34,269 nt of DNA, taken from assembly GCA_000934665.2 (NCBI GenBank), contig KZ539077.1, positions 1-34,269 on the forward strand, given 5' to 3'. The stretch's first letter is position 1. The number at the start of each line of letters is the position of its first letter. Both the position numbers and the translations under genes were made by a program. The notes under the pieces were generated by a model. That model ran no database searches, was not told where the DNA came from, and saw nothing but the letters and a program-made list of their open reading frames with translations. The stretch comes from Catajapyx aquilonaris (taxonomy: Eukaryota). This document shows positions 890 to 34,269 of the stretch, one piece after another.

Positions 890-1117
890 GTCTGTGGACA
901 AGTGTCAGGCAGACAAAAGTCTTAAAAAGTCTTACAGCACGGCTCTGTCTGACTGATACAGACAGACAGACAGACAGACAGAGCCGTGCTGTAAGACTTT
1001 TTTCGATTTTCGGGTTCCAGGTTCACTCGATCCGCCCCTTCCCCCCCAAACCCTTTCCCCCTGATACCCTGATACTTGTCCACAGACGGACGCACGGACA
1101 GAGCCGTGCTATAAGAC
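890..1117. mobile_element. (GACA)n-containing non-autonomous element ends in inverted arrangement (Helitron/Helentron-associated-like)
   Basis: A perfect 28-bp inverted repeat at 924-951/975-1002 surrounds a (GACA)n tract. An outer inverted pair lies at 890-908/1069-1087. A third copy of gacagagccgtgctrtaagact is at about 1097-1118. GACA/GTCY microsatellites near termini are typical of DINE-1/Lep1-like elements, so the family call is by analogy. Confidence 0.5.
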
Positions 1118-4100: not shown

Positions 4101-7100
4101 TTACATACATATTCTATATCGTATTATGTAAGATATTACTGATTAATATCATTAATTTTTTTTTATAATACACCACAAAAAGAGGCCACATTTCATCTCC
4201 TGCCTTTAGCCATAAAATGCCCTTGGGAACCCCCGGATTTGTTCGAAAGTCTTCGACATGAACAAGCAATACTCTGAGAGAAGGATTTCCGGACGGATCG
4301 AAGAAACGGGACAATATTTCACGACTCAGCAGCCTGCGTGCCGAGATTCATGAAGAACCCAATTACCGCCTGTTTCTCTGCCGGATGCTTGCCTGATTTT
4401 GAGAATTGTGGATAGAATTCCAATGAAGAAACCTCCAACTAAAATTTCCTTAAAATGTTGCAATTTTTTTTACCTTAAATTTTTCTAGTTAGCCCTCATC
4501 ACCCTTGTCCTTTTCAAGCTGCAATAAGACGTCCAATTTGTGACACTTGTACGTCGCTAACGCCCCCTTTCGTTCCTTCTCCCAAGCTTGTAATTTGGAA
4601 CTCGACTCTGAGCCTTTCCTTCTCTCCTTTTAATCAAAGTCTCGAAAAGGAGTTTTTGCCTCTACACCCCCTTTTCTCCACCCACCCCTCCAAGAGTTTG
4701 GAGGATTGAAATCGGAGAGTCCATTGTAGAAGACTCCCCAAGTTACGTTGCTTATTCAACTCGGCAGTTATTTGCTTAGTAAAGTACTGCTGGTCTGAAA
4801 ATTTGCGAGAGCCAATTACTCGAATGTCAAGTGTCGTTCCGGAGTCATGAAGCATGAGGATGTATGTATGTGAGCCATGGCTGACCTTTTCGGATTTGAT
4901 TCATGGTCGCCATTTGCACCTGTGTAGATAAGAGCTTGGCCCCAAGTTATCGGGTCGTAAAATCTGAAAGCCCCTACAGTCACCAATCATAAACGGGCGT
5001 ATCTTTGGACCCTCATCGTATATGTCACATTCATTCGTGGTGTCTCTCAACATATTCAAAAAAGTAAGAGAAATTCATTAAAACTTTGAATGGGACACAT
5101 TAAGGACTTCTTGCAGCTTTTTAACAACTTGGGGCTAAAAGAGTTTGAAATGGGGAATTGTAGGGCGCATTAAAACGGCATGACTTTTTGACGTGCACCG
5201 TAAATTAAAATTATTCACATCACTAAATATATTTATGCACCTATCTACATAAAAATGTTTACCTCTATAAAAATTTATGCACCTTAATGAATATTTTTGT
5301 GCATGTTTCAGTGTGGTATGTATAACTCGGTATAACTCTGCTAAAATAGTTTCACAACTACTCTTATTTTGTAGTAAGGGCAAAGGTGACATGAGAGTGA
5401 CCGACCCTTTCCGATACCAAATCTCAACCGATATTGTGTGCCTGAAAAATTGTCATTTTTATTTCGAAACAGTTTAATAATATCTTACTTATGAGGAAAT
5501 TGCTTCCCACGCTTCATTTAATGGAAGATCGCATTGTCTTCTCGGACAGCAAGACAGAGCCTTTCTTTATGGATCGGCGAATAGAAAGGGGACCAAAAAA
5601 AAAAAGACTCGCCATCAAGCTTTATGAATTGGAAATCAGACCCTGACACGCAACAAGTTGAATCGCCTCTCGTCCCAAATTGCACATGAAATAACATGAA
5701 GAGGATGGTGGGACAAAAGGGTGGGCTATATATCACAGAGTGAATGAAAAAAAAATCACTATTGAGACATCTCGACTGATAGTTTCTATTATCCTTGCCC
5801 TTGGTTTTATCGGGTACTTTGGTTTTGGACTGGAAATTTGCATTTCCAATACCCTCTTTTGTACGGCAGGATATTGGAATCGGGAGAAAATCCGGGTTTA
5901 GTTTTCCTCAGTATGCATGATGAAAGCACAGAGCGTGGTATTCCTTTGGGATACCTGGACTTTTGCAGCTTCAAAAGTATCGGCAACCCTTGAAACCACA
6001 TGCGGAATTGTTGGCATATCCGTATGTTTTTACACAAAGTCATGTGCACTTTGCTTACTGTACTGTCCGGGAAACACTAGCCTACTTTCCAGTTATAAGC
6101 TCACTTGCAGTACCGGTTTTACCATGTTTTTTTACTCTCAGAAAATGTCTGATTATAACACAAACGATCGATTTATTCAATGGAAATTATGAAAAATATT
6201 TATGATCCAGAAACATATTTAGCTACTTTGGTTACACAATTAATTTCATTCAAGTGTAATTTTCATTGTTATACAGTTCTTCTCAGGTCAGCAAAGGGAT
6301 TTTGGCCAACGTCCGCAGCAGTCCGTTGCCTCTATTGATCAGGCAAAAAGGAACGATTTTAGGAGGACCATTAGCCAGGAATTTCCTCAGCCCTAAATTA
6401 CCCAGCTTGAAATTGTCTCTACCAATTACCGAACATAATGTCGCTTATTCTCCTACGTAATTTTACCAGTAGGTTAATTATAAAAATGAATTCGTCAACA
6501 GCCCACGTCGTATTTTCTTTGACTCACTATCGCAAACAATACATACACAATTTTAGCGCAAATTAGTTCGCATAATATCGCTCATCCTGTACTATCATTA
6601 CATCATGTGTGTCTCATATTTTTCATCATATTATGTTAGTACAAACATTAATTGATGGAACAGGACCAGTGCAAACAACAGTTGCACAAACACTTCTTTT
6701 AAAAGCGACCAACAAGCACCACTGTATGTCGGACACATCTGTTCATTAATGAAAGTTAATATTTGCTACATACCGGTACTTAATGTCACAGCTAATAATA
6801 AGTTCCTGCTCTTAATCTTAGTAATTAATCGAACTCTACATTCTTCATACGTAAACGCACTTTGTAGTGTACACTTTAGTGGGGGCCTATTTCCGCCGCA
6901 AGGTCCTCCTCCTGAAAATTTGGCCACTCTGGGGATCTTTAATGTACACTCGCGCAATATCACAAGCACTGTAGACCCTGCTTCCTAAGGGAATATTTAA
7001 AAGAATTACTATGCCACGATATTAGTATATTCTACGCACTTTTAATCCAAACCATAAAAGCGGTGTCTAAAAAACTGCGTACGTCACTGGGCACCTGTAA

Positions 7101-10100
7101 ACCCCCTTGAGCCCCCGAGGCCCAATTACCAAGGAACAAGCGCGAATCTGAGGCAAACATGGTGGAGCAGTATGGCAGGGGACAGTAAGTCTGGGATCCG
7201 TCTTCTGTGGTCTCCGGGGATCCACTTAGAGGCGGAAAAGGCGCCTCCAGCTGCCTCACTTTGCCACGATTTAATGGTCCAGAGTTAGTGATTGGGTCTG
7301 CGGCAGCACCCGGATAAAAGGGGACGCCAGGGGCTCTTACCAAGGATTCATTCATTCCTTTCTGAGCACCCTTCTTCATCTTACACGCTGTTTTGTATCC
7401 TCAGTTTTACTGTTGCTTTCTGATTAGGAAAACACGATACTGCGTAGGGTAAACTTCAAGGAAATGTGATCGGGGAATCCCCGTAACCAAAGTTGAATCC
7501 GCCAATCAGGCATTGCCTTTAGGGACGTATGTTAGAAAATCTCAAAAAGGAAAGTGCTGAATACGTCACACTGTTCCATAATGTGGAAAATATGAGCCCA
7601 AAGCGCAATATCAAGCTTCAAGCTTGAGAGCCTGCCCATGTATAAGAGTGTTACAGACTTTTTTTTTCTTCTTGAGTGGATTCTTCTTTCGGTGGGATTG
7701 CAGACTTTGTCCTTATTACGTCAATCACGTCTTAGAGCACCCACTGTATAACTGGTGTCCGGATATTTCCTGCTGGATATCACGTTCTTTCGTACTCATA
7801 GAAGGGGATTTCCTACACAAAAGCAGATTCAAGTCATCGGTGCGGCAAATTGGTGGTGCTATTGAAGCGGAAAAGCTGCCCCTGGTTGTGTTAGATATAC
7901 TCTTTTTTCCTATACTGTAAGTGCAGTATATGTATAATATTTTGTCCACCTGATTGCTTCGTTGAACATCCAATCTGCGTGTGATAATAATTGGAAGTTA
8001 TATTTTTGGAGTAACGTCGCACACCTCGGGGGTCGCTCCACTCTAATTCTTCCTGCAGGCGCTTTTTCGGGGGCACTAAAAACATTGTGTATGCCACGTG
8101 TAACTGTAATTGAGTGCTTTGAGGGATGTCCTCTAAAACTGGGATTACTAGGCCAAGGACCTCGTCGAAATTGTAATTTAATGAAAAGCTGTCACACATA
8201 ATTATTTCAGCTTGCTTTATTGAGTACCTTGTTTACAGGGAACAAAAATATGAAAATATAAGCTGAAAATTTTTATTGCTTTTCATGTCAAAATCCATCG
8301 CACTGTAAAGTTTACTTGTTAAATGAGATGACTGGAAGATTAAGCGAAAATTAACAGGGATAATCCGTTTAATCCTATGAAACAAACTGCTAATAAAGTG
8401 GACAACATGAAGGTCAAACGACGAAACTTTAACCCTCCTCAACTACTAAATCCTTTTTAATCCAACTAATTTCAAGTTTTTAGCACGAAGCAATTAAAAA
8501 ACTTATTAAATTACCGCAAATCCTTACAGAAAGCAAATATTTTCTCCTGTACATGTAAGCTTACAGTCTTACACCCAAATGGATTACCACAATATATGCA
8601 TCCTTTTTGACGTGGGCGACCGGAGCACCCACTAAGAAAACACGTCATCAATTTATGATTTCACCCGGATCTGAGCCAACCATGACCTTTGGCACGACGA
8701 AGGCGGACAAGATTAAAAGGCGCGTGTCTTAAACCAGAAATCAGGTGCGAGTCACACCGGAATCCAAGGGGCATTCCCGGACATTACATATTCTCCACCC
8801 GTTGCCCCGAGATGAAGTCACACCATTTGAGCCACCTGAAACGCTCCAGGGTGGTTCATCTCCATTTGATTCACTTTACTTCAAGTGTATGACACGGTTA
8901 ATTACACGCCCGGTACCCTTAAGTAGTGACTCCCCTAGGCCACACCTAAGTGATTTCTTTCGGACCAGTCCCACCATTTTTTATGTGTAGAGCTGAGGTC
9001 ATCTTATGGGTTGATAAAGGACCAGTGGTGAGGCGTGGTTGTTAGAAGTGTTTCAGCTGGCAGGCAGTGAGTGTCGAGAATTTTGTATCGGGTAAGAATG
9101 CTTATATTTTATTGCAAATAATTATTTTTGCAATATATTGAACTGGCCTCATTTTCCTAGAAGGTCATTAGTAGCCTCATTAGTGTCTGCACCATTATTA
9201 GAATTTTTTTTTACTTTCAAGAAAACTTGATTGCTTCGTCGCCCTTCCTCCAAAATCGTTTTGGTTTAGAGCACCAAATCGATAGGTCCGTCATTATACA
9301 CTGATTAGGCAATTTTCTTTACATCATAAAGCGAAGGAGCAGAGGAGTAACATAGGCTATAGGAAAATATTCTGCAAGTGCTAAAATTAGCTACGAGTTG
9401 AATTAGCGCAAGATGCTGCTAATGACCTCTGAGAAAACGTGTGGATAAACATGAGCGTACGTAAGGCACATGTGTGTTTATTATTTGAACTGAAATTTGC
9501 TTATTTTTGGATGTCCACTTCTTTCATCAGGTTCTGGTTTTCTTGCGTACAGTACCATACGTAGGGATACGTCACAACCACATATTTATACCATTTATGC
9601 GTGATGACGTTAATGAAATGGCTACAAATAAGCCATCTTGACGCCTGTTAATTATTAACCATTTATTCTCATTAAGTGCAGATTATTTTAGGTTCAATTC
9701 CTCAGTCGCCCAATTTACAAACAATCGACCCTATCCCTCGTAATTAAGAGCCCAATTCACCAAAAAGGATTGGGTTAAACTTAGGGGACCCACAATTTGC
9801 ATTTCCTTCTTTAGTCCTAAAATCGATAACCAGAAGCTGGCTTAAATTACTGCTCTTGCTATGTGCACATTGATTAATATACGTCAACATAGCTGTTGAC
9901 ATTTTCAGACATTGATTACAAATCCAAAAGAGCACCGGAATATTGCGTAGTACTAACCGAGAAGTAAACGTTAGCCGGATCCTGTAAACTCAATCCCCGA
10001 AGTGACAATGAACTTCTAATGTCAGAGGTGGGACAGCCATTGTGGACTTATCTGACCTCCATTTGCTGCTGAAAATACCGCAACTTCACATCGTGGTCAC

Positions 10101-10316
10101 TCCAGCCTAGCTATCATATAATGAACCTGTCTGCCTCCGGGGGTTAAGTACACTCTACACCATTCAAGTCGCCGGAGGCGACCATTAACGTTCCACAAGG
10201 ATGCGAAATGTGATATCGATAACCAATATATGTCTCCATAAAGTTGATGCCCTGTGACATTAACGGCTTAATGTCTTTTGGTCAAGATTTTTGACCTGTG
10301 TCAATACCTTTTTCAG

Positions 10317-10415
10317 ATCTCAGCCCAGCATCATATCAAGAAAAACTATATCACCAAGTGCGACTGGGTCATCCAGCAACTGTTACTACAGAGCTTCACA
10401 GACTAATCAGACACA
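10317..10415 (+). other. 5' UTR portion of the first coding exon (implies an upstream non-coding exon)
   Basis: Polypyrimidine acceptor cctttttcAG ends at 10316, 99 nt before the ATG. Confidence 0.55.
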
Positions 10416-11111
10416 ATGTGGGTAGGTTGGTTCCGGAGGTTTCTTAGCGTGGTGCTGATCCTGGCTGTGCTGAGCCGCTCAGAAGGAGGCATACTGAACA
10501 AACCTGGCAAGGAGTACCGCAAGCTCAAGTCCGGCAAAGTGCGGGCGTCCAAGGGCTCTGAGTATGTTCCTGCCGGAAGCAAAATGGCGAATGAGCCCAG
10601 CTGCGAAGAGCTCAGGGCCATGTGGCGCTTCTCCAAGCGTCAGTCTCGGGCAGCCGAGATGACCAACGAAATTCCGCAGTTCCGGGACCCGTTTTACACG
10701 AACACATGGGGTCCTGAGCCATTGGGGAGGAACCGGGTTCATCACTACGGAAGGGTGGTCCACGCTCCTCCTGCTCATGGGAACAGCCGCAACTCGGGCC
10801 CTAATAAGGCCAGGGCATTCGAGGAGGTGGTACGTATCTTCGGCAACCCTAGGAGCAACCCTAGCACCGGACCTGAACTTAGACGACGACCTCCCTCCCG
10901 GAAGACGTTCCGGGTTCTAGGTGGTGGGGTGCCACAAGTCTCCAATCCCTTGTCGTCGTCCGGGAAGTTCCAGGAGCTTCGGGACATTGTACGGAACGAG
11001 AGGATGAAGGACCTGCAGATGCAACAGCAGGCTGTGGTCAGGGCCATGCAGGACCAGGGTGACGCCGCGGATGACGAAGAGGAGATTGTCCTTCAGGAGG
11101 TGCCTATTGAG
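10416..11111 (+). CDS. First coding exon of an uncharacterised secreted (prohormone/neuropeptide-precursor-like) protein
   Basis: ATG at 10416 with an in-frame TAA at 10404-10406 just upstream. N-terminus MWVGWFRRFLSVVLILAVLSRSEG|G fits a signal peptide (basic n-region, hydrophobic core, small-residue cleavage site). Codons are GC-rich against AT-rich flanks. It contains the block EPSCEELRAMWRFSKRQSRAAEMTNEIPQFRDPF and basic sites (KR, RRR, RK). It ends at donor GAG|GTATGT (11111/11112) in phase 0 after 232 codons. Confidence 0.9.
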
Positions 11112-11226
11112 GTATGTACGACATAATTTTACGCACAACACTCAGTTTTCGCAGCGTGATTCTTGTAACCCTTCGCCTTTCCTGTACAGTTGCATGTTTT
11201 GCTGATATTACATTTTCCCGAACTAG

Positions 11227-11646
11227 GCGCCAATGGGAGGCCACTTTGGACGTATTGTCCATACTCCTCCTTCCGGAAAGTTCGGCGACCTGGTGGAATC
11301 GCCAACAGCCTTTGAAACAATCCGGTACGGACCTTCAGGTCGGTACAGGGACAGCCCCATAGCTCAAATGGCAGCCGCCGAGGGCAAAACCCGGGGCGGA
11401 GGCTTCCTCAGCTACCCCGACGTGCTGGCTCCTGCTCATGTGGGGCCAAGGGTCATCATCCCCGAACAAGAAGAGGAAGAAACACCCAGGCGGGTGGTCA
11501 TCGTGGAGGAGCCCAGTGGTGACCTGAAGGCCGAGGTGCCCTCTAGCGAAGGTCTCACCAGTTCTGAGGGATTCTTTGGGCCTATCCACCAAGAGGCCAA
11601 GGTCCCTCAGCAACAGTACCGATCAAGGGAATTCTCTCGACATCAG
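11227..11646 (+). CDS. Second coding exon of the same secreted protein (APMGGHFGRIVHTPP...REFSRHQ)
   Basis: A 115-bp intron (11112-11226, GTATGT...cattttcccgaactAG) joins in phase 0 to the frame of ORF 11233-11685. The exon has 140 codons and ends at donor CAG|GTAAAT (11646/11647) in phase 0. It shares peptide motifs with exon 1. Confidence 0.85.
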
Positions 11647-11934
11647 GTAAATACCATTAACACACTATGCATGTTAGGACCGTGAAAGCATGTGAGTGAG
11701 GGTCACAGGCCTACTTTTGACCGTTACGACCGTTACGGCCACCGCCATGACCATGCCCTTGTAGCGCGAGCCAGTTATGGCCACCCCAAAAGTTCGGTAT
11801 TAGACACACACAAAGCATATTGGCCTTCGTCAGTGAGAAACCATACCCTTAATGTTCCTGAGCACGTACCACAAGTGAGAAGAATGCCAGTTAAAAACTG
11901 AACAGTAGCTCCCCCCGAATCTATACGGCATGGC

Positions 11935-12000
11935 GGGGGGGGGGGGGGGGGGGGGNNNNNNNNNNNNNNNNNNNNNNNGGGGGGGGGGGGGGGGGGGGGG
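11935..12000. repeat. Poly-G tract with assembly gap
   Basis: G runs flank Ns at 11956-11978. Similar G/C homopolymers with Ns are at about 19901-19940, 28281-28319, 28778-28807 and 31048-31083. Confidence 0.95.
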
Positions 12001-15000
12001 CTGCCTACTCTTCAAAAGACGCAGATGCCGACGCCGAGCGGGGGCGGAGGAAATTCGCAACCCAACTCCCACTATACCCGCCTCCCTCTTCCTGCAAACT
12101 AGATCTCTCTAGCTCCCCTCTCCCCCCCTCTTTCCCCCTACTCCTTCCAATTTCTGAATGAAATCCCATTCGGGCACGGTTCCAACTGCACTTGGCTCTG
12201 GCCTCGGCGCGCTCGTTCACACGATAAAACTACAGCTATACCATCCTCACTAGGAAATCCAACTTTGGCCATACCGCTAAGTGTGGACATGGGTTTAGAT
12301 GACCAGCCTTGAAACACTAACTAAGGACAGAATATTAATATTTCTTTCTGAATTGAATTTTAAATATATCTTGAATAACTTAACATCAAGGAAAAAAAAT
12401 ATATGGACAGAGATTTTATGGGGTATAAAAAGTTTGGTCTCATTAGTAGCCCGCATTGCTCCAGATGTTACATGACGAGGTTTTGATTGTCGTCTTCGAA
12501 GTAATTCTTTTAAACTTTTCTTTTCCTTCGCAGCCTTCAGATGGAGCCAATAATGTTCCGTTTATATGCGGTGAAATTGGGCGAAATTCATTTTAACGTT
12601 TGATGTACCGGTTTTGTTTGATGAAACTGTTTAACTCTTTTGAATCATTTGCAACGTTTTTAATAATTAACTTCAAAATCAGGCAAAAATTTTGTAATTA
12701 TTCTTCAAAAAAATTTAGATTTTGCATATTAAGCCACACCATTCATTTTGTTTGTCGTGGTATTTTTGTAGTTGATATTAATTAGCAGAAGTATACAACT
12801 TTTTAATTAACATGTCATATTGGGCAGGTAGAAACGCCGCCACTTCACATTCACAAATTTATTTCACATATGAAATCATTTCCAACAATCTCGCCAACAA
12901 TGGCAATTAAGAGCTAGAGCTACAATGTGCAAAAATTGCAACAAATTAATTAGTTTTACTTCAACAAAAGTTTTAATAGGTTCTTACTTGAAGGCTTGGG
13001 TATTACAGTCAACAAGTTGGAAAATCATGAGTTTCGTTGTTTCACGAACTTAATACTTTCAACTTACCAAGTTTAATAACGAGCTCTTGACTATTATCTC
13101 AATCAAAAGGAACAGTAAGGGCCTATACAAAAGCTAACAACAGGCAGAACGTATTGCTAAGCGTTAAGAGCTGGCAGCTTCCTTTGTAGACTTCATTCAG
13201 TAGGAAACGCTTCCAACTATTCTCATTATTCGGACACCGCGTTCCAGCAGCACTAGACCCAAATAGTTGAAAACCGCTCCCGGTGGAGCATATGCTTTGG
13301 TGTTTAATCGCGCATAAGAGCAGCTTGTTAAAGCTAGAATTCACAGGAGCGCCCTGTTAACGATGGACCAACTAATATTAGGAATGACACCTTTCATTTG
13401 AAGGTTTGAATGCCATTTCGGTCGATTATATCCTAGGTTAAACCACCCCTATAGCGATAAGTTTAAAATTGTCTAAATTGAACACTATTTCTGTCTGACT
13501 CCGACATTCCAAATAAACATGGGCATAATGAGGTTCAAAATGCGAGTGGGCGAAAAACGTACTTTGACATATGACTGACGCCGTATTTTTCGGAAAAGCG
13601 TTGCCAGAAGCGGCTCTAAAGCCATCATAATGAGGTACGGAAATTGGACGTACACGAATGGCATTTTAAAATTCTGCTCGGTTCGTAATGCAATAGAACC
13701 AGACCTTAAGTAGGCTATACCAAATTGAGGAAACTGAATATGCGATCCCTAATTATGTCAGCTTCTTTAAACACTGATGGACAGAGCAAATAGTGTCTAA
13801 AGTAAAGCCAATATTTGCGCGATCGGAGCGTGAAAAACCGGGTTTTTATACCCGTGACAAGTTACATCCCCAAGACAACGGATAAGCATGGTGACTGATA
13901 GTTATATCCAAAGCGATGAATCCCGGCGTTGTGAAGTACAGATGCGATTAGAGTCCCAATTACTTTCTAATGGGATCACCATTTAGTGCGGCATAATTGG
14001 AGCGAGATTGAATTACCTTTTCCTCTTGTTTCTCCCGTGGGAAAATAATTCCAGATGGAGCTAGGTGTAACGTTATGAAAACGCATATTGGATTTGCAAC
14101 ATTAACGTATGCATTTATCCAGAAATTAGGTTTCGAGACTTATGTCACGGAGTTTCATTTTCAAGCTATCAAACTACTGAGGCAATTTAATGCCAGAGGC
14201 CCAATAACGAAATTTTTACAAAAAAATGGCACACTTATTTAGACCGACTTACGGGTTAATGTACAGTACGTATTTATTCACATAAGTTATGCCAATTGTT
14301 GTAAAAATCGAAAATTGTGGGCGACTTCTGGTATTGTTTGTCCGACTAAAATACCGGAACATTTCCGGCGATGGAGTCTCCGCGTGTTAAATTCCTGTTT
14401 GACATATCGTAATGAAGCTTAACTGAATTATTCCGGGCATTACATTTTAATGGACGTGGTCGGATATTAATCACGTTACACATACACCTACAGTAACTTG
14501 CCGGATCCCGTTGAGTGGACTATCAGAAATGCTGCAATCATGAGTAATAACAATTTTTTAAGTGTCATCGTGGGGGGTAGCCTATTTATAGCAGGTAATA
14601 ATAGCTACAGTATACTGTATTGTGTATGTTATATACCGTACTTAATTTTGAATGTGAATAAATATTCTAAAGTAAGCTCGTGATCGTTAATTACACTTTG
14701 TATTTAAAAATTAATTGCAACAACTGCTGATTCATGATCTGTTATTATGTCGATCTCATTATGATCCAGGATATTTGACCGCGGTTCTCATCCACGTGGC
14801 TTTCAGAAACTCGAAGCAAATTCAAACCCATGCTCCGCCTTCTGCACCCGAATTCCGACCATGAAGCAAGGCTTACGCTCTATATAATCCTGCCGTTGGA
14901 GACGAAGGCTATATAGCAATTAGCTCTGTTAGCGATAGCAAGTACCTGCGCATATTGCCATATCTAATTTCATCTCATAATTCTGAATATTACCGCAAAG

Positions 15001-24700: not shown

Positions 24701-26939
24701 GCCACCGATTTGGCTCTTTCCTAGTAGCCAAGCTTTCCAGACCAAATTGTAATATTTGCTGCTGTAAAGGAAGCCCTAGTGACACATGGAACACGGGAAA
24801 AAACATATCCCCCCCCCCCCTTCAAAAAAAAAAATCATATACACCTACATGTTACCTATCCTCCTATTTCTCATTTCCCACTCCAATGTCGTACTGTACA
24901 AGTTATGGTTGTGAACGTGATTGGACACGTGTTTATTTTTTCACTTTATTCTTCTTTCTTGTGAACATACCGATTTATCATAGGAACAACCGCACGTCAC
25001 TTTTGTACGCGAAGAATTTAAACCATGGCACCGACAATTCTTGCTGCCTATATGCGATACAATTTTGTTGGAGATCTCTATATAGGCATATAAGAACATC
25101 AGACAATACATATATTCAGACTTAAAGTAAACTTGTCTTCCCAAGATCTCTTTGATAAAACAAAGACATATTTTGAGCATTTGTCTAGTGAGCGAAGAGC
25201 AAAAAACTTCGTGGTGATATTTCATCTTCCTGCTAGCCTAATATTATCGTATTGTTGAGGAAATTAATATTCCTACGACCAAACGGCAGACAATAACACC
25301 CGCCTTTGGGTAAAACACAGAAAAAGACGGAAAGTTGCGCGAATCCTGGTCGATTACTTGTTATATTCGAGAACGGATTTTCTCCCGATACTTCCACTGT
25401 TTTATATGTCACTCATATGTACTATCAATATAAAAAAAGAGGTTCATATCACTTATAATGAACACAACAATGATGCTTTTTTTTGTTGCTTGCAGTATTT
25501 CAGTATTACACAATTTATTCCTTGTGGTGTGTAGTCTGAGTTTCTCATATTGTTCAAAATACACACTTTTGTCAGTGAAGCTCTCTCGGAGAAAGCAAAT
25601 GATCAACTTGGGTCCGGCGACTTTTTCATGCAGCCTCAATAACTAGATACTGTAGGCGATTGTGGGGTTAAAAATATTATTGATCATATTTTGTAACTTT
25701 TAAAACAAAAAGTGTGGTTACTGTATTTGCCTACATCTACATACTAATTTATTTGCTAAAAAGTCAATCATATTTTCAAAAGAGGAAAACAAACTCGTCA
25801 AGTGAAACCGAGGCTGGAATTTTAGGTATTGATCACCAGACTATGAAATGAGCCCCACGTGCTGATGATAGTCTCACGAGTAATAATGTGGTGATCAGAA
25901 TGTTGCAACAGGGTAACAGTTTCAATTATAATATTGTCTTCCAACACCAGTGTCGTGACTGCACTCATGCACCGCAAAGGGAATTTAATTTCGCACACGT
26001 TGGATGACGAGGCTGGTACACAACTATGTTTACGACTATACAGGAAAGTTCCTCATTCTTTAGCAGTGGTTTTCAGATACGTTTTTTGAGGCTGGAGTTA
26101 CTTGTTGGTATGTTTCACCGGTAAATATTGTGGACACTATTAGTTTTGTATGTCACTACATCCACGCCTTACTTATGTAGAGAGGTGTGCGACAGGTATT
26201 AGAACTCTCAGGATAGCGTGTGTTTACAGCATATTTATCAAAGGTTCTTCGGGTGTTGAGGAAGCCGGTACATGAAATATGAGGAACATGACAATGTATC
26301 GGTCATACAGTAATCACCAATGTTACAACACCTGTAAGAACCTATTTTTACCCGAACTTTCCTGTATAGTCAAGGACAGATACCGTAATATTGTGTTTTT
26401 TTGTTTTTTTTTTGTTCCAACATTTATCAGTGTAACACAATGTTCCCTCGCATTTTAATTTAATTTTAAGTTTGAAGATCTTTCGGGAGCTCATTATATC
26501 AAGTGTAACAAAAAAAACCGTCTTAGTCTGCAATTGAAATACAAATACTCATGCCATGTTTTCATTGGTAAATAGCAGGAACGAGAAAAATTTGGAAAAT
26601 GAACTTTGATTCTCGTCTTACATATCCTAACCTGCATATCTGTCACTCTACTTCCTTCTGATCCTGGTATTTAAAATTGTAATTAATCATGTGAAAGTAT
26701 TGTTAAAATAAAGAATGAATAGAAACAATAAAAATCCAAACAATTGAACTCTATCTTTATTTTGACCCTGGCCTGGTGTTACTCTCTATTACCTAAACTG
26801 CCTGTCATGGAATATTGAATGGTAAGTTCGACCCGGTAAGTTTGGCTGTTTTCATTAACGGCTGTTAACGGCAACCGTCATTTGCCTGCCCTCTGTAGTC
26901 AACCCCCAACACCTCCATCCTCTCCCGGCCTGGGGGTGG

Positions 26940-27058
26940 AGCACAGATGGCAGGCAAAAGACGGTTGGCAGGCGGACAGACGGACAGAGACGACAGACGG
27001 ACAGAGACGACAGACAGAGAGGCAGACAGACTCACAAACGGCTTTATTTATATAGATA
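26940..27058. mobile_element. GACA-rich Helitron-like (Lep1/HINE-type) element terminus
   Basis: Degenerate (CAGA/CGGA)n tract with a duplicated gacagacggacagagac unit, followed by ggctttatttatatagat. This layout is typical of termini of non-autonomous insect Helitron-like elements. Confidence 0.45.
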
Positions 27059-28887
27059 ACAGCGATCTTATCATATAAAAAGACATGATTTGGCCATAGA
27101 TGTTTCTTCTCCATCTAGTACTGAATCGTCTACAAACAATTTCTGGCAAAAGAGATATTTTAACTTGAACCATTTGAACCAGACTCTAATGGACTCTTTT
27201 GGACCATAATATACTGTATCACTCTGCACTCCGGTTATAAAAGGTGACTTATCCGAGTCCCCAAAAAACGATCCATTTTTTTTTTCCCCTCCCTCCGTGT
27301 GAATGAGCCGTTTCAGCGAAACCAGAGTCTGGCCCATAAATTGGCAAGGTTGTGCTCTCGAGCTGGCACCCGAACCTGGCTTAGGACACACCCACGACTC
27401 CTCTTTCCGAGTTAAGCCGCGATAATCAACGGACCCATGAATCTCAGCAGACAGTACCATTTTCAACATGCTAGCTGGAGAGAGAGAGGGAAAAAAAAGG
27501 TGGTCTGAATTTTAACTCAAAAGCTGGAGTCTAGTAATGGGTCTCATCAATAACAGTATTACGTAACGTGACTATGAATAAAAACAGTGTTTACCGTGTT
27601 TAATTTGGAATACATTAATTGTGTCAACAAAGCAATGTTGAATAGAGGGTAGTTTAAATGGTAATGAAAATTGATAGCGTAAATTTACTGGCCCTGATTA
27701 TTTATTTTATTTTTTAGCTTCACCCCCATTAGAGGGAACAGAGCCCTTTTAGGGGGGTGGATTACCACCATTTACTGGCCCAGATTATAAAATTGTGTAG
27801 CACTGATTTTTTTTTGCAAAAAAAAAATGCTCACTTCATAAAATTTCGTGAATATTTTTATGCACTTCTGAAACATTCTTGTGGACACTGTAATTAACTG
27901 AGTTAATTCTCCATTCAGTTCTAAGCTACATAATGAATTAGGCGATCTATCAGCGCACTGCAATTAAATTTACTGAAGCGCAACCCACCATATCATTTCT
28001 AATGACTCATGATATATTGCAGTATCAATAGGCTGAGTATTGATAAATGACCCACGCCTACGTGGATGACGTTTCTGGCCAAAATTCCAATAGGGATAGC
28101 CCTGTGACAAAACAGGGCGCAATGACATTGGCGAGGGATTTGGCAGTGACGTCACTGACGCCAGCTGACGCGTTGCAGCAAGTCCCCGATTTCTGAATGG
28201 GTGGGCGGAGGAGTGACTGGAGGGGTGGGTAAGGGTAGGAGGGTAGAATGGGAGGGGTGCCAAAATTGCAACCTAACACACCCCCCCCCCCCCCCCCCCC
28301 CNCCCCCCCCCCCCCCCCGCCGCCATGACATGACGCTACACTTAGTTGGAGGCGTCGTCGGATAGAGGCGCCACATACCAATGCAGCTTAAGTTCAATTG
28401 ATCGGGTTCCATTGGCGGTATTTTGCATTGGACTACTGCCATCTTGGGGGGTGTTGAAGAATTTCATTATCTTTGGACATGGGTTGGAATTAAATTGGGT
28501 GTGTGGGTGGGAACAGGAAATAGAAGAGGTAACGAATCATTCATTTGTTGTGAACTTTTAAGTGGTTCTGTCCATTTTAATTTGGTTCAGGAAGTAACTG
28601 TCCTGGCTTCAAACATCAACTTAGTAATAGCTATGTCGTAATTCTTTGATGGGAATTTTTTTAACTGGCTTGGTAAAATTAACTATTTAATCTGATGCCA
28701 AAATTAGGTAAATTGATAATAATCAGTGTGACATAGCTTACATGAAGACATGATAACAACACTTGCACTACCAAGCGCCCCCCNNNNNCCCCCCCCCCCC
28801 CCCCCCCGGGCTCAGTTTTAAATTTGATCGGATAACGCCTTTGTATTTGTACAAAAGAGTACCTCGCAGACTCGCAGACCTCGCAGA

Positions 28888-29640
28888 CCGTTATGGACAG
28901 GTTTAACTGTTAATATGAAGGCCCGAGGAATGAAAGGTTAGGTTACGTTACTCCCGCCGCGGCGAAATAACCTAACCTAACATTACATTCGCGAGGTTTT
29001 CAGATGTAGTTCTGGGGTCCGTCCGGCGGGAGTAACCGAACCTAACCTTTCATTCCCCGGGCCTTCATATTAACCTTGATATTAACAGTTAAATCTGTCC
29101 ATAACGGACCACGCCTACAATGGTGGCCGTAGGTTACTCCCGCCGCGGCGGAATAACCTAACAGCGAGTCTTTCAGATGGAGTTCTGAGGTCCAGACGGC
29201 GGAATTCACCTAACATAACATTACATTCACGAGTCTTTCAGATGGAGTTCTGAGGTCCAGACGGCGGAATTCACCTAACATAACATTACATTCACGAGTC
29301 TTTCAGATGGAATTCAGAGCACCCGCCGCGGCTGGAACAACGGAACCTAACCTTTCATTCCCCGGCCTTCATATTAAGAGTTAAATAAATCTGTTCATAA
29401 CGAACCACGCGTATAATGGAAGCCTAGGTTACTCCCGCCGCGGTGGGAGTCACCTAACCTAACATTACATTCGCGAGATTTTCAGATGTAGTTCTGGGGT
29501 CCGGCCGGCGGGAGGAACCTAACCTAACCTTTCATTCCCCTGGTCTTCATATTAACAGTTAAATCTGTCCATACCGGACCACGCGTATAATGGAGACCTT
29601 GATGGTTACTCCCGCCGCGGCGAAAGTTAATCCGCCGCGG
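28888..29640. repeat. Modular TTAGG/palindrome repeat, block 1 (~175-185 bp unit, first module inverted)
   Basis: Palindromic cores start at 28947, 29133, 29428 and 29605 (spacings of 186 and 177 for the full units). 28888-28960 is the reverse complement of about 29025-29108. An exact 65-bp tandem duplication lies at 29165-29294. Confidence 0.92.
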
Positions 29641-30944
29641 AGGTTGGGAGGATGGTTTTTTGATTTGTAGTGTCCTCTCCTCCTAGAAGGAGTGGTGGGC
29701 CGATCCTGGAGGTACTGCAATGCCTGGCCAACCCTTGGCGGAGGTGAGGCAAGCCTCGAGCACTCCGCCCCAACCCAAAAATCAGTTTAATATTCTGGTC
29801 CCCATTTTGGGGACGTACCACTGTAATCCCGGATTGTGGTCTTCCTAATATCACTACCAGAAAATCCATATAAATTATTGTGCAAAGTCCTTGCAAGCAC
29901 CATTCGGACTTTCGGCGGGATTTGCCTTTTCCTCTCGTATGTCTGTCATGGCGGACAAAGTTTGCCTTCAGTCAGATGGCGCTGGTGATTGTGTTTAGCT
30001 GTCTGTATTAATCACAAAGTCTATGGTTAGCGTCATCTCGGGTGCTGCCCTCTGGAAGGACGCCTCACGAACTACTGCTGGGGGCAGAAGCCTAGTCCCA
30101 GCCTAGTGAGCCTAGTCCATTACTCCGTGCCGAGTCCGTCCGTCTGCATGTTCCGACGCTCGTCGTGCGTCCGTCCGTCCGTCGTACCCGCCGTCGGGGG
30201 CATCATGCGACGACGCCGATGACTGACCGGCATGCTGACCCAGGTAGGTCACCATTGCTGCATAATGGAGGGGGTAACTCGATTGCCGGTTGAAGTGCAC
30301 GTAGGAATAATAGGCTGGGGTGGGCTGGGGAGGAAGACAATGTTCCTGGGATTTAGGTCGTCGATTTTCTGGATTAAAAAGCATCAAATCAGACTGTAGA
30401 TTTAGCGGAATCTTTATCAGAAAATGTAACACTCAGTACTTGAAACAGTGAGGATAATTGGACAACTCATTGCAGCACTTTATTGCCGGCCCTCACATCC
30501 AGGGTTGGAAATACATTGCCATGAAATTTTAAAAACCTGCCGTGAATAGGCAATTTTTACAGTGTGTAGGACCATTTTCCGATTATCCGGCGACATCCGT
30601 GCAGTCATTAGCCCGGATAATCGCGAGCATTGAGCATAGTGTATTTCCAGACGTGCACTAGAAGGAAGCATCCAGTGAAACCCAGGGTCCCCTACATGGG
30701 TGCCTCGCTGCCTCCCCACCAAGCTCCCCACCCTAGCCAGGGTACTGTCTCCACGTAGTCCTTATCCTTATGCCATTAATGGGCGGCCATATTGGATCTA
30801 GATTGCATGCTGCAGGATAGGAAATTGGCAAGCGTTTTCTTTTTTTGTTCAATGACATTTTTTCACTGCATGCAGGTAGATCCAATGTGAAGTAGATTCG
30901 ATGCTGTAGGTGTCCTGGAGGACTACCAGCGTCAGACCCTCTGT

Positions 30945-32317
30945 AATTCTGGGCTGACCCAGTCTCGCAAGACCCAGAGCAATGGACGAAAAAGTTGGGT
31001 TAACTTATGGCCGGCACCCGGCGAAGCCGCAGCTAACCGGCTATATCGGGGGGGCGGGGGGGGGGGGGNGGGGGGGGGGGGGGAATGAGCAGTTCGAAAA
31101 ATTACCGTAGATAGATAATTTACATTTCCCTCATTGTACAAGAATAATTATTGTACCTAACATAATTCTGAAAGACTAGCGAATGTAAAGTTAGGTTAGG
31201 CGGGAGTAACCTAACCTAACATTACAATTGCTAGTCTTTCAGATGGAGTTCTGATATCGGGCCGGCGGGAGTAACCTAACCTAACCTTTCACTCCCCGGG
31301 CTTTCATATTAACAGTTAACCCTGTCCATAACTGACCCCGCGTATAACGGAGACTTTATGTTACTCCCGCCGCTGCAGAATAACCTAACCTAACATTACA
31401 TTCACAAGTCTTTCAGATGGAGTTCTGAGTTCCAGTCGCGAATGTAATGTTCGGTTGGTTACTCCCGCCGCGGAGGAATAACATCAGATCTCCATCTGAA
31501 AGGTTCGCGAATGTAAAGTAAAGGCCATTTCACAAAAAAATGTCGCGCGGCAAACGGCGCGACTTGCGGCCAATTTTTTATTTGTATTTATTGTTGCCAA
31601 CAATTGGCAACAATAAATGTAAATAAAAAATTTGCCGCAAGTCGCTCCGTTTGCCGCGCGACATTTTTTTGTGAAATGGCCTTTAGGTTAGGTTATTCCG
31701 CCGCGGCGGGAGTAACCTAAGGTCTCCGTTATAGTCTTATACACGTGGTACGTTATGGACAGGTTAAACTGTTAATGACTTCACAGGTGTTGCCGGATAG
31801 AAAAAAGGTCCTGTAGACATAGTAATGTACTATTGTATGGAGGGTATGCTGCTAGGTTTAATCAAAAGAAGAAGAAAATTACCGCAGATAGATAATTTAA
31901 ATTTTCCCCATTGTACACGAAGCCTGTAATTAGACGAAGTGACTCGTATACTGTTAATACAGAAATGCTGACCATCTAATTTGGAATTCTGGGCTAACCC
32001 AGTTTGGCTCTCGCAAGACCCGCAAACTTTGCTTTACGAAATAGGTTACTCCCCCACCGGTTGGTCAGTGCCACCGGTTAGCCGGGTCCGCCGGGTGCCT
32101 GCCACGTTAAGTTACTCCCGCCGGTTTCTACCCTAACCTAACTTTTCGTTCTCGGATGGAATATCTGGCGTGAGAAACCTAACCTTTCCTGCGACTGACT
32201 ATCCAGATAGGTTACTTTATGTTACTCCCGCCGAGGGGTGTTGGCCGCGGCGGGAGTAACCAAACCTAACTTTACATTCGCGAGTCTTTCAGACGGAGTT
32301 CCGAGGTCTGACTGGCG
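30945..32317. repeat. Modular TTAGG/palindrome repeat, block 2 (mixed orientations, nested MITE, duplicated flanking modules)
   Basis: The same modules as block 1 occur at 31167-31776 and 32043-32317 in both orientations. Extra duplicated segments are 30945-30975/31985-32021 and 31098-31140/31875-31917, plus the inverted pair 31000-31040/32074-32110. Confidence 0.88.
31522..31682. mobile_element. 161-bp foldback MITE, PIF/Harbinger (Tourist)-like
   Basis: 79-bp arms at 31522-31600 and 31604-31682 with 4 mismatches and a 3-nt loop. Termini are AGGCCATTTCACA...TGTGAAATGGCCT. Flanks are TAA (31519-31521) and TTA (31683-31685). It interrupts the host motif gaatgtaaagTTAggttagg, seen intact at 31181-31200. 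Confidence 0.85.
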
Positions 32318-32885
32318 CACAGAGGGCCGGGAAGCGTATTTAGGCGGCCCGGTTATCATTTTACGAAGTTCATCGGAAATGCGTGAAAATAATGTAAATG
32401 CACGAGGAATAGTTCAAAGTGACAAGCCCTGAATAAATTTAGCGAGTGTTGATCTGAGAAACCTCAATTTTCACTTCCTGCACTTGTCTCTTCTAATTAT
32501 CGAGAAAAAGTGCAGTTTTGTCTTCTAGTAACCACCCTCTAATTCGAGTCAATGAAGTTCGTAAAAAAAATAGTAATTGTATTTCTCATGACCTACAAAA
32601 TTTGTCTAATGTCGTCCACTTTCCTGTCTTGTTGCAATCGATCACTGGTATTGTACCGAACACGAGGCAAGAGAAACTAGCAGCGAATACCTGCGAAGCC
32701 GCGTTTCCTGGCCTCATTTCCGGTGCGAGGGCGTTGGCGCGAAATTCAAACCAGCCTCGAATCTGATGGACCGGTTTAATTGTGGGCATGCCAAAGCAAG
32801 GATCTTGATCCTCAAATGATGGGGACACTGTCCCAGAATATCTCTGAAATTCTGAAGTGATTTTGTCGCTCATAACCTACAGGGA

Positions 32886-34146
32886 TGGTTACTCGCGCCG
32901 CGGCGGGAGTAACCTAACGTAACTAATCTGGAGAGTCTGTTGCAGGAAAGGTTAGGTTTCCCACGCCAGAAATTCCATCACAGAAAGAAAAGTTAGGTTA
33001 GTCTGTTCCGCAGCGGCGGAGGTAACCTGTGATCTCCGTTATGAACAGGTATAGCTGTTAGTATGAAAGCCCGGGTAATGAAAGGTTAGGTTAGGTTACT
33101 CCCGCCGCGGCGGAATAAACGCAGAACTCCATCCGAAAGACTCGCGAATCACGAATGTAATGTTGGGTAAGAGTACTCCCGACTGCTGGACCTCCATCTG
33201 AAAGCCTCGCGAATGTAAAAGGTTACTCCCGCCGCGGCGGAATAACATAAACTAAATTAAAATTCGCGAGGCTGTCAGATGGTCGGGAGTAACCTAACCT
33301 AACATTACACTCGCGATTCGCAAGTCTTTCATATGGAGTTCTGAGTTTATTCCGCCGCGGCGGGAGTAACCTAACCTAACCTTGCCTTACCCGGGCTTTC
33401 ATACTAACAGTTAGCCCTGTCCATAACGGAGACCTTTGGTCAGTCCCGCCGCGGCGGGAGTAACCTAACGCAACCTATCTGGAGAGTCCGTCGCAGGAAA
33501 GGTTAGGTTTGCCACGCCAGAAATTCCATCCGAGAACGAAAAGTTATCTTACAAACCGGCGGGAGTAGACGGCGGGAGTAACCTAACGACCCTAGCGAGG
33601 TCCGGTATGGACAGATTATGCCAGATTAATATTATATATAAAAGCCCGGGGAAAGAAAGGTTAGGTTAGGTTACTCCCGCCGGTCGGTCCTCAGAACTAC
33701 ATCTGAAATACTCGCGAATGTAAAGTTAGGTTAAGGTACTCCCGCCGCGGCGGGAGTAACCTGACCTAACCTAACCTAACCTAACTTTACATTCAGGAGC
33801 CTTTCTTTCACGAGTCATTAGGTTACTCCCGCCGGCAGGACCCCAGAACTCCATCTTTCAGCCTCGCGAATGTAAAGTTAGGTTTGGCTATTCCCGCCGC
33901 GGCGGGAGTAACCTAACGTTACATTTGCGAGCATCAGTGGAGTTCTGGGGGTCCTGCCGGCAGGAGTAAACGAGTAATGTAACCTAACTTTACATTCCAA
34001 GGGCTCTCATATTAACAGTTAAACCGGTCCATAACGGACAACGCGTATAACATAACGGAGACCGTAGGCTACTCCCGCCGCGGCTGAATAACCTAACCTA
34101 ACCTAACATTACTCGTACATTGACGAGTCTTTCAGATGGAGTACTG
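32886..34146. repeat. Modular TTAGG/palindrome repeat, block 3 (includes 400-bp and 147-bp palindromes)
   Basis: Cores near 32888, 33095, 33222, 33347, 33443, 33736, 33888 and 34068. An ~80-bp module D is directly repeated at about 32914-32995 and 33465-33546, and inverted at about 32139-32215. Confidence 0.92.
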
Positions 34147-34160
34147 GCCCCCTTACATTG

Positions 34161-34269
34161 CACTATAGCCCAGTCATTTTAGATTAAATTTTGGTCGAAC
34201 CTTAAAAAAATTAGTGTAAAGCTGGAAATTGGTACAGAGGTGCTCTTTGACCCCCTGAACAAGACACTA
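34161..34269 (+). mobile_element. Possible left end of a Transib-like non-autonomous DNA element (runs off the window)
   Basis: Begins CACTATAG directly after CATTG, just past the end of the repeat block. Transib TIRs start CAC(T/A) and have 5-bp TSDs. The other end is not visible. Confidence 0.3.

Follow-up and report, generated by a model that had tools for sequence, protein, structure and literature searches.

A 5-kb cluster of short repeat units joined at palindromes of a shared terminal repeat: possibly a decaying foldback/MITE-like family

A non-coding patch of about 5 kb in an arthropod-like genome has been found to be made of short repeat units with a common inverted end. As a whole it is strand-neutral and occupies 28888..34146 of the window (the entire stretch of 34,269 nt that was analysed), with arrays of two units, U and D, lying on both strands. 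The cluster is genuine and greatly exceeds chance expectation. From the one locus studied we consider that it may well be an old, decaying, non-coding repeat derived from transposons of the foldback/MITE-like kind and rearranged via the shared end, designated T.

Seventeen of the window's 19 CCGCGG sites lie inside 28888-34146, where a first-order Markov simulation (1000 runs) averaged 1.4 and reached at most 7; the figure of about 17 intact centres, reached by eye in the initial annotation, is thus confirmed. Half-sites (at most two substitutions from CGGCGGGAGTAAC or CGGCGGAATAAC) show the same concentration, 44 of 45 falling in this region and one in the remaining 29 kb. The recurring modules A, B, C and D described earlier all map inside the region and, in a search of the whole window, nowhere else: the rest of the window yielded only A/B/C/D matches of 10-14 nt (E 0.2-0.8) and, in its 29 kb, no isolated copy of a unit. 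The cluster is broken by non-module DNA at 29641-31166, 31777-32105 and 32312-32869, and both of its edges end in truncated modules (Table 1).

U is a composite unit of the form T-A-T-B-C-inverted T, about 175-220 bp long, present in seven copies that are 73.0-90.2% identical. The order and orientation of A, B and C are fixed in all seven; these modules are not free cassettes but parts of one composite unit, and the shuffling therefore concerns units larger than had been thought. The D unit (T-D-inverted T, about 112 bp) is bounded by inverted copies of T and occurs three times. At E<1e-3, 26 module bodies (15 A, 8 B and 3 D) were recognised on the two strands. Only one of the 16 adjacent pairs of these bodies lacks an intervening T site, and each of the four orientation flips between bodies is located at a T site, which upholds the view that most junctions fall at the palindrome or a half-site; one flip lies within a module body, at 31430-31440. 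The proposal that module order and orientation vary has held for the use of both strands and for the flips at T, but not for A, B and C within the seven U units.

Table 1 Units, modules and inserted sequences of the repeat cluster (positions are those of the window)
Position	Strand	Feature	Basis
28888..28959	-	Partial B-C unit (B body and long T arm), cut at the cluster's left edge	B 1-47, 91%
28960..29145	+	Composite unit U1 (T-A-T-B-C-inverted T)	Module mapping
29146..29440	+	U with tandemly expanded A sub-unit, then T-B-C-inverted T	TRF 29165-29319, 65-nt period, 2.4 copies, 97%
29441..29617	+	Composite unit U2	Module mapping; exact Logan contig spans 29282-29755
29690..29878	-	U2 snRNA-like sequence	70.5 bits, gathering score 46
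31167..31197	-	Partial inverted A, truncated T arm; joint here without one core	Module mapping
31198..31372	+	Composite unit U3	Module mapping
31373..31470	.	T-A, then partial inverted A and inverted T; flip inside module body	Module mapping
31471..31703	-	Inverted A unit, long T arm split by unrelated foldback MITE	Module and inverted-repeat mapping
31514..31690	.	Inserted foldback MITE, outside the family	87-nt arms, 93% complementary; high contig depth
31704..31776	-	Inverted B-C unit, truncated within B	Module mapping
32106..32233	-	Inverted D unit; inverted T cores 32111-32123 and 32221-32233	D 6-81, 89%
32245..32308	+	T-A sub-unit, non-module DNA after	Module mapping
32870..33012	+	B-C unit tail, joint 32900/32901, then D unit	Module mapping; exact contig spans 32886-33106
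33013..33234	-	U7 (B-C, A, A), left arm of large palindrome	Inverted repeat, 176-nt arms, 86%
33235..33451	+	U6 (A, A, B-C), right arm of U7/U6 palindrome	85.2% identical to U7
33452..33569	+	D unit, then duplicated T core	Module mapping
33570..33747	-	Composite unit U5	Module mapping
33748..33899	.	T with about 5-6 CTAAC-type pentamers and degenerate A, then inverted T-A-T	33757-33785, period 5, 5.8 copies
33900..34080	+	Composite unit U4, most diverged copy	Module mapping, identity
34081..34146	+	T-A sub-unit, cut at the cluster's right edge	Module mapping

T, which heads every module, is a terminal repeat of 23 nt composed of CGGCGGGAGTAAC and then two CTAAC pentamers. The palindrome consists of two inverted T cores with zero spacer, end-to-end contact of two units yielding CCGCCG/CGGCGG; there are 14 such joints, using 28 of the 44 half-sites, and the other 16 are solitary. 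Unit boundaries correspond to CCG/CGG, at the 14 joints and at solitary ends, which lie there or adjoin an A tail. The joint had been described as a 26-bp palindrome usually flanked by TTAGG on the left and CCTAA on the right. The exact 26-mer has no occurrence in the window, the best joints agreeing at 12 of 13 arm positions, and of the 17 centres 12 have CCTAA on the right and 5 have TTAGG on the left, just 4 combining the two; the pentamers number 2-5 per site and are always part of T. By our reading at least eight different kinds of end-to-end pairing, all exact at the axis, are found among about 17 joints, and the arm variants travel together with their units.

In structure predictions the joints form hairpins with energies between -8.5 and -15.9 kcal/mol. 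U, B-C and D units bear inverted ends of 13-16 nt; in predicted folds the B-C and D units fold back via 13-nt end stems (z -3.3, -4.2 and -2.6), and A sub-units alone, which have no working inverted end, do not fold back (z +1.0 and +1.2). Conservation is 93.4% in internal T cores and 97.1% in the pentamers, but falls to 73.9% in A and 78.1% in B+C bodies. Judged from sequence, such conservation of T above the bodies despite its CpG richness would suit gene conversion and a protein that recognises T equally well. Since T has diverged less than the bodies, it leaves room for site-specific insertion or recombination at the joint, and the higher conservation of this CpG-rich end is the sole observation that keeps the involvement of an enzyme open.

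The T core is identical at 13/13 nt to a conserved 28S rRNA 13-mer adjoining the R2 insertion site (28S consensus, PMC4370867 Table 3). Similarity to 28S does not extend past 13 nt and Rfam gave no rRNA family match at E<=5, so a 28S rDNA fragment has been rejected. A junction of rDNA with a healing telomere has been rejected as well, because the 28S-sense core runs into CTAAC (C-strand) and not into TTAGG (G-strand), an orientation opposite, by our reasoning, to that of a telomere capping a piece of 28S. A sequencing adaptor or linker artefact has been discarded since the recurring joints have diverged from one another in both arms and flanks.

Two tandem repeat periods, 65 nt (97%) and 177 nt (81%), have been detected, with only 2.0-2.4 copies per array; these short arrays, the mixed orientations and a depth of 1-18x single copy led us to reject satellite DNA. 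A palindrome with 176-nt arms (86%) is centred on a joint, its arms being made of several units, and there are direct duplicates of 105 and 130 nt (84% each) that contain several modules apiece. The array has been invaded by other repeats and by an unrelated MITE, the latter (31514..31690) of high copy number in the genome as its contig depth is 3955-12712 versus 15-27 for single copy. MicroRNA-like Rfam matches below threshold fall on this MITE, on the A foldback block 31369-31517 and, in one case, at 32276-32321. About 70 nt from the last joint a sequence resembling U2 snRNA was recognised; its 3′ ~130 nt give a good alignment, unlike its 5′ part, so that it looks like a 5′-truncated pseudogene.

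None of the 80 ORFs of at least 75 aa matched a Pfam family (E<=0.01), and no enzyme, transposase, Rep/helicase or recombinase is encoded, in agreement with the initial annotation, which had made this statement for the window. The cluster contains neither an ORF family nor a viral gene. In Rfam only U2 passes its threshold and the cluster has no ribozyme, rRNA or tRNA-like match at E<=5; a search for tRNA genes found none. A T 19-mer gave no matches in metagenome, viral and prokaryote genome collections, and a second joint 19-mer likewise had none among the 2.9 million contigs of the viral collection. The architecture of densovirus/parvovirus (rolling-hairpin virus) ITRs, hairpin-telomere resolution sites or baculovirus hr elements, with which the joints had been compared, is not borne out: there is no viral gene and no viral match. 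An A-module 19-mer occurs at seven metagenome loci, none of which (0/7) has the T core or a pentamer dimer, and these hits were taken as chance. Four module/joint strings had no occurrence in the literature searched, and no description of such a repeat was found there among the matches listed. No target-site duplication was seen at the units, which abut at CCG/CGG, or at the cluster edges, which are truncated modules.

In our preferred explanation the cluster is built from two short units, U and D, which share the terminal inverted repeat T and abut on either strand. The present arrangement would have arisen mainly as the 65-nt T-A sub-unit slipped in tandem, as segments of several modules were duplicated in direct or inverted orientation, and as the many direct and inverted T copies recombined or served for template switching in replication, the hairpin-prone joints probably acting as hot spots of exchange or switching between T copies. 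No dedicated enzyme would be needed today, and the copies would be decaying. The initial proposal of a non-autonomous family rearranged by a trans-acting enzyme survives as far as the non-coding modular repeat, the common inverted end and the palindromic joints are concerned, but the joint-recognising enzyme, although it may exist, is not needed, since an equal picture would result if the 23-nt T repeats recombined or were sites of template switching. We infer an origin by transposition, neither a target-site duplication nor a solitary copy within unrelated DNA having been seen to show it; recent activity is not supported by copies that are 73-90% identical. Further points against the preferred reading are the conservation of T above the bodies, the at least eight pairings of ends exact at the axis, which are many for undirected rearrangement, and the lack in the cluster of the plain two-armed layout of a foldback element.

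It is possible, although we think it unlikely, that U and D are non-autonomous TIR transposons, inserted by a transposase from elsewhere at the CG-rich end axis of their relatives and so building arrays. The terminal inverted repeats, the predicted fold-back of B-C and D units and the ends more conserved than the bodies are as expected of such elements, as are units found on either strand with many different neighbours and modules that are split only by the single flip inside a body. Nevertheless, the A sub-units have no working inverted end, multi-unit duplications are unlike the products of single insertions, no target-site duplication was recognised, the other 29 kb hold no isolated copy, and both the low summed depth and the divergence of the copies are unfavourable.

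That the arrangement is partly an artefact of a short-read scaffold assembled through a repeat seems improbable. Scaffold gaps, visible as N within homopolymer runs, lie at 28784-28788 and 31069, near or in the cluster, and N runs in G or C homopolymers occur at three other places in the window; the long-range order in the cluster is therefore not secure. Logan contigs break within the repeats, and among the matches listed none spans the whole cluster. On the other hand, exact contigs (28789-29159, 29282-29755 and 32886-33106), possibly from the same sample as the assembly, cover seven joints, and joints recur 14 times with diverged flanks.

Summed Logan contig depth over module bins is 14-391 versus 15-27 for exactly matching single-copy contigs (about 1-18x), which suggests a U/D family of low copy number and fails to sustain the claim of amplification. 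Other module joints were found in at least 15 contigs (the best 15 of 72), so differently arranged members of the family are present at other loci or as alleles.

The Helitron/Helentron idea would make the units non-autonomous elements of Helentron type (HINE/DINE-like), or tandem products of their read-through, that a rolling-circle Rep has spread; in our view this is very unlikely. In the parts of PMC7492417 that describe them, a subterminal repeat of 11-12 nt in the HINE left flank is accompanied by a complementary repeat 1-12 nt off and by a microsatellite, and the middle carries short tandem repeats. This part of the idea finds a counterpart here, as an inverted 13-nt pair stands ahead of (CTAAC)2-5 and short tandem sub-units, and 'inverted T / T / (CTAAC)n' resembles that flank. 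The boundaries, however, are CCG/CGG and not the two thymine residues (T/T) between which Helentron elements (HINE, DINE-1) insert without a duplication; no distinct right-flank (3′) palindrome or hairpin apart from the joint was found in the cluster, both orientations are intermixed, depth is low and the window has no Rep or helicase ORF.

Were the palindrome the site of a tyrosine or serine recombinase, its symmetric centre would let the enzyme invert, excise and re-insert units in a cassette-like manner, and zero-spacer joints exact at 14 axes, at least eight kinds of end pairing, arm variants travelling with their units, a T conserved more than the bodies and alternative joints in other contigs could all be so explained. 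We hold this to be highly improbable: the window encodes no recombinase, the copies are old, 16/44 half-sites are solitary, and homology-driven exchange between T copies predicts identical joints. We know of no animal precedent for such a cassette system. Just as doubtful is the idea that the 26-bp joint, with its 28S-13-mer arms and telomere-type pentamers, is the site of a novel animal recombinase or end-specific transposase exchanging units at the axis.

If the cluster is merely a decayed foldback/MITE-like repeat, it adds one more lineage-specific family, useful chiefly for annotation, and a caution on short-read assemblies, which are fragile at palindrome-rich loci of this kind. Should an enzyme lie behind the exact joints, they would be a rare animal case of site-specific joining of DNA units, and the 28S-identical core beside telomere-type pentamers would hint at the origin of the site.

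Among known systems, baculovirus hr elements and parvovirus/densovirus ITRs contain several imperfect palindromes, each with a 6-bp restriction-type site at its centre, within direct repeats. The cluster shares this layout but has no viral genes, its motif is absent from viral contigs, and it is set in ordinary host-like DNA with a likely host snRNA pseudogene and host MITEs. In subtelomeres, according to the relevant passages of PMC9498494, satellites and rDNA are joined to telomeres directly or through linkers; TTAGG/CCTAA pentamers stand beside complex repeats here as in subtelomeric or interstitial telomere-like repeats, but only 2-5 per site and always within T. MITEs and tandem arrays derived from them resemble our units in size (about 110-220 bp), in the lack of an ORF and in terminal inverted repeats predicted to fold back, whereas the units have low copy number, show no target-site duplication and abut without spacer instead of being dispersed. 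The foldback element Tetris of D. virilis is described in the sections of PMC4079207 devoted to it as a modular element that exists in many rearranged forms; its inverted ends (up to 1,735 bp) consist of short tandem repeats and can seed satellite-like arrays, and it has a middle domain and 8-10-bp target duplications. Unlike foldback elements (Drosophila FB, Tetris), the cluster has units of 65-220 bp, intermixed orientations throughout rather than two clean arms, no duplication seen and joints that are palindromes of 13-nt cores; like them, it is non-coding, modular and rearranged, with tandem sub-units and inverted multi-unit blocks of 176 nt that form a local palindrome.

The repeat system placed by the initial annotation at 28888-34146 is real, since the reference copies of its module bodies A, B, C and D were placed exclusively inside this region by window-wide mapping; module matches beyond it extended over just 10-14 nt (E 0.2-0.8). 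Half-sites, each one arm of the CCGCGG-centred palindrome (up to 2 substitutions to either arm variant), were found 44 times within the region vs once in the other 29 kb. The region holds 17 of the 19 CCGCGG sites of the window, matching the estimate of about 17 intact centres, vs a mean of 1.4 and a maximum of 7 expected from 1000 runs of a first-order Markov simulation, and all window copies of GTTACTCCCGCCG (12/12), CGGCGGGAGTAAC (10/10), TTAGGTTAGG (4/4) and CCTAACCTAA (14/14) are located there. The CpG observed/expected ratio is 1.02 in the region and falls to 0.76 outside it. CG-centred 6-bp palindromes are seen at the joint (CCGCGG), in A (TCGCGA), in B (CCCGGG) and in C (ACGCGT).

When all half-sites were oriented outward from their own axis, a 23-nt terminal repeat (T) was obtained, consisting of CGGCGGGAGTAAC followed by CTAAC CTAAC and heading all module bodies; the variant core CGGCGGAATAAC accompanies A. 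The palindrome is formed by two T cores placed back to back with zero spacer: 28 of the 44 half-sites make 14 such joints and 16 are solitary, six of them coming after an A tail. The 26-mer originally written for the palindrome has no exact copies, the best joints agreeing with it at 12 of 13 arm positions, and the flanks described as usual, TTAGG on the left with CCTAA on the right, occur together at just 4/17 centres (CCTAA right 12/17, TTAGG left 5/17). By our reading of the oriented half-sites, at least eight kinds of end-to-end pairing exist among ~17 joints, all axis-exact. In single-strand folding the joints gave hairpins with energies between -8.5 and -15.9 kcal/mol (z between -2.2 and -5.4), and B-C and D units closed via their 13-nt ends (z -3.3, -4.2 and -2.6); the same test revealed no folding of A sub-units (z +1.0 and +1.2).

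The B-C unit is composed of T-B-C and the short inverted core GTTACTCCCGCCG, the D unit (n=3) carries T at one end and inverted T at the opposite one, and the A sub-unit consists of T-A with one of two endings, a weakly conserved inverted core (TTTATTCCGCCG) or else GGTCCGNC immediately preceding the next T. Seven stretches align full length (alignment A1) as a composite unit, U, of the structure T-A-T-B-C-inverted T. The modules do occur on both strands and with varied joints, as first proposed, but A, B and C cannot be treated as independent modules, their A-then-B-C order being retained in 7/7 U copies. The U copies show 73.0-90.2% pairwise identity; for the inverted neighbours U6 and U7, which have private features in common, the value is 85.2%. 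Within A1 mean pairwise identity amounts to 93.4% for the internal T core, 97.1% for the internal pentamers and 89.0% for the tail inverted core, and to 73.9% for the A body and 78.1% for the B+C body; T is better conserved than the bodies despite its CpG-richness. The first 14 nt past T are similar among A, B and inverted D, and judging by sequence the A, B and D bodies seem to have diverged from a single ~65-nt ancestral unit. Module bodies detected at E<1e-3 number 26 (15 A, 8 B and 3 D), with a T site between neighbours in 15/16 adjacent pairs and at 4/4 orientation flips, a near tautology because T heads all bodies.

Features of the repeat cluster and of its surroundings
Feature	Position	Strand	Remarks
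U copy	start 28960	+	A1
U copy	start 29441	+	A1
U copy	start 31198	+	A1
U copy	start 33900	+	A1
U copy	33570-33747	-	A1
U7, inverted pair with U6	33013-33234	-	A1; second A
U6, inverted pair with U7	33235-33451	+	A1; second A
T-A tandem	29165-29319		period 65 nt, 2.4 copies, 97% (Tandem Repeats Finder)
Second tandem	29271-29620		period 177 nt, 2.0 copies, 81% (Tandem Repeats Finder)
Large palindrome	centre at joint 33234|33235		176-nt arms, 86%
Direct duplicate	33666/33818		105 nt, 84%; covers several modules
Direct duplicate	32871/33422		130 nt, 84%; covers several modules
Orientation flip	31430-31440		within an A body
Pentamer tract	33757-33785		5.8 TAACC copies within one T arm
U2 snRNA-like sequence	29690-29878	-	70.5 bits vs threshold 46
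Foldback MITE	31514-31690		177 bp, 87-nt arms (93%); in long T arm
High-copy repeat	30430-30815		in non-module insert
Repeats common to inserts	30942-30968/31982-32008		85%
Repeats common to inserts	31098-31144/31875-31921		89%
GC-rich segment	10407-11682	+	52-54% GC; open frames of 239 and 152 aa
N runs	11956-11978, 19940, 28302, 28784-28788, 31069		all in long G or C homopolymers

The tandems, the large palindrome and the multi-module duplicates indicate that the array grew largely by segmental duplication, direct and inverted, and not module by module. We read the cluster, with about even confidence, as a decaying foldback/MITE-like repeat; its anatomy, duplications, divergence and lack of coding capacity are observed directly, whereas we infer both its transposon origin and the route of its recombination. 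With ~44 copies on both strands in 5 kb, T is the sole homology between different units, so that unequal exchange, inversion or template switching would necessarily break and rejoin at T; such events at T copies would preserve the palindromes, and hairpin-forming joints would promote them. The conservation of T above the bodies and the variety of exact joints speak in favour of an enzyme; against its involvement are the old copies, the low depth, the duplications covering several units and the solitary half-sites. Among the enzymatic explanations end-specific transposition through terminal inverted repeats (TIR) fares best, and we regard it as unlikely.

Contigs from four DNA runs of one sample were compared with 28500-34269. 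Those with zero differences (28789-29159, 29282-29755 and 32886-33106; depth 15-27, run X1) span seven joints and do not count as independent support, because that sample may also have yielded the assembly. Alternative joints number 15 among the matches listed plus 57 more; those among the matches listed come from single contigs of about single-copy depth, include several joins between opposite strands and one of a C end to an inverted-T/D block (29598 to 32107), and show that other loci or alleles are arranged otherwise. The five N runs probably mark scaffold joins or artefacts of gap filling; those at 28784-28788 and 31069 lie just left of the cluster and inside it, so the scaffold is joined at both places. 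Partial misassembly of the cluster is considered improbable. Summed contig depth, which indicates abundance only roughly and gives no copy number, ranges from 14 to 391 in module bins across the four runs and suggests a low-copy family. The MITE, at 3,955-12,712 vs 15-27 for single-copy sequence, therefore belongs to a high-copy family, and the depth of 24,900-29,093 in the bin with the pentamer tract means that TTAGG-type repeats are very abundant in the reads of this organism.

A Helentron-type element is somewhat less probable than misassembly: the left-flank pattern is like that of HINEs in PMC7492417, but the boundaries here differ from T|T. Slightly less probable still is a site-specific recombinase that acts on the symmetric site, for which the exact joints speak and against which the solitary half-sites count. 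No enzyme is encoded in the window, as had been stated, 0/80 ORFs of at least 75 aa having a Pfam family.

No tRNA was found, and one Rfam family, U2 snRNA, scored above threshold. This sequence, separated by ~70 nt from the left array's last joint, aligns convincingly just in its 3' ~130 nt and therefore looks like a 5'-truncated pseudogene. The MITE probably carries a TA duplication; its microRNA-like Rfam matches are sub-threshold. The segment 30430-30815 is another high-copy repeat, with a summed contig depth of 1,109-4,295 and many contig loose ends at 30575 and 30621-30627. Two further short repeats are shared by the non-module inserts to the left and right of the middle array, so the inserts are themselves related. 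The open frames of the GC-rich segment, without a Pfam family, may be host gene exons; the 239-aa frame begins with a hydrophobic, signal-peptide-like segment.

The T core (e.g. 31263-31275) contains 13 nt identical to 28S rRNA. The stick-insect 28S consensus is GAAGCGCGGGTAAACGGCGGGAGTAACTATGACTCTCTTAAGG in Table 3 of PMC4370867, the same 13-nt word is present in R2 junction sequences in PMC3774820, and 26 papers in all contain it, several being on R2 or 28S primers. The identical stretch is bounded precisely by the axis and by the start of the pentamers; an rRNA family search gave no match. A chance match of this 13-mer to a ~4-kb 28S gene is of the order of 1e-4 and, allowing for how it was noticed, chance accounts for a few per cent at most, which is only an estimate. 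The identity may stem from an rDNA origin, imitate a site to which a protein binds, or be coincidental.

T-based 19-mers had no matches in metagenome, viral and prokaryote collections, and a literature text search found no occurrence of any of four module strings in the papers covered. Seven metagenome matches of an A 19-mer were dismissed as chance, T and pentamers lacking in all. The cluster is neither a viral ITR nor an hr element, to which it had been likened, and a classical satellite was rejected as well; no target duplications were seen at it, nor dispersed copies or an autonomous partner within the window, and the data on it show no active or new mechanism. The closest known kinds are MITE arrays, HINEs and foldback elements such as Tetris, described in PMC4079207 as modular, existing in many rearranged forms and seeding satellite-like arrays. 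The cluster has inverted ends and is non-coding, and its architecture is unusual: the joints have no spacer, the core is identical to 28S sequence, and pentamers of telomere type form part of the end repeat.
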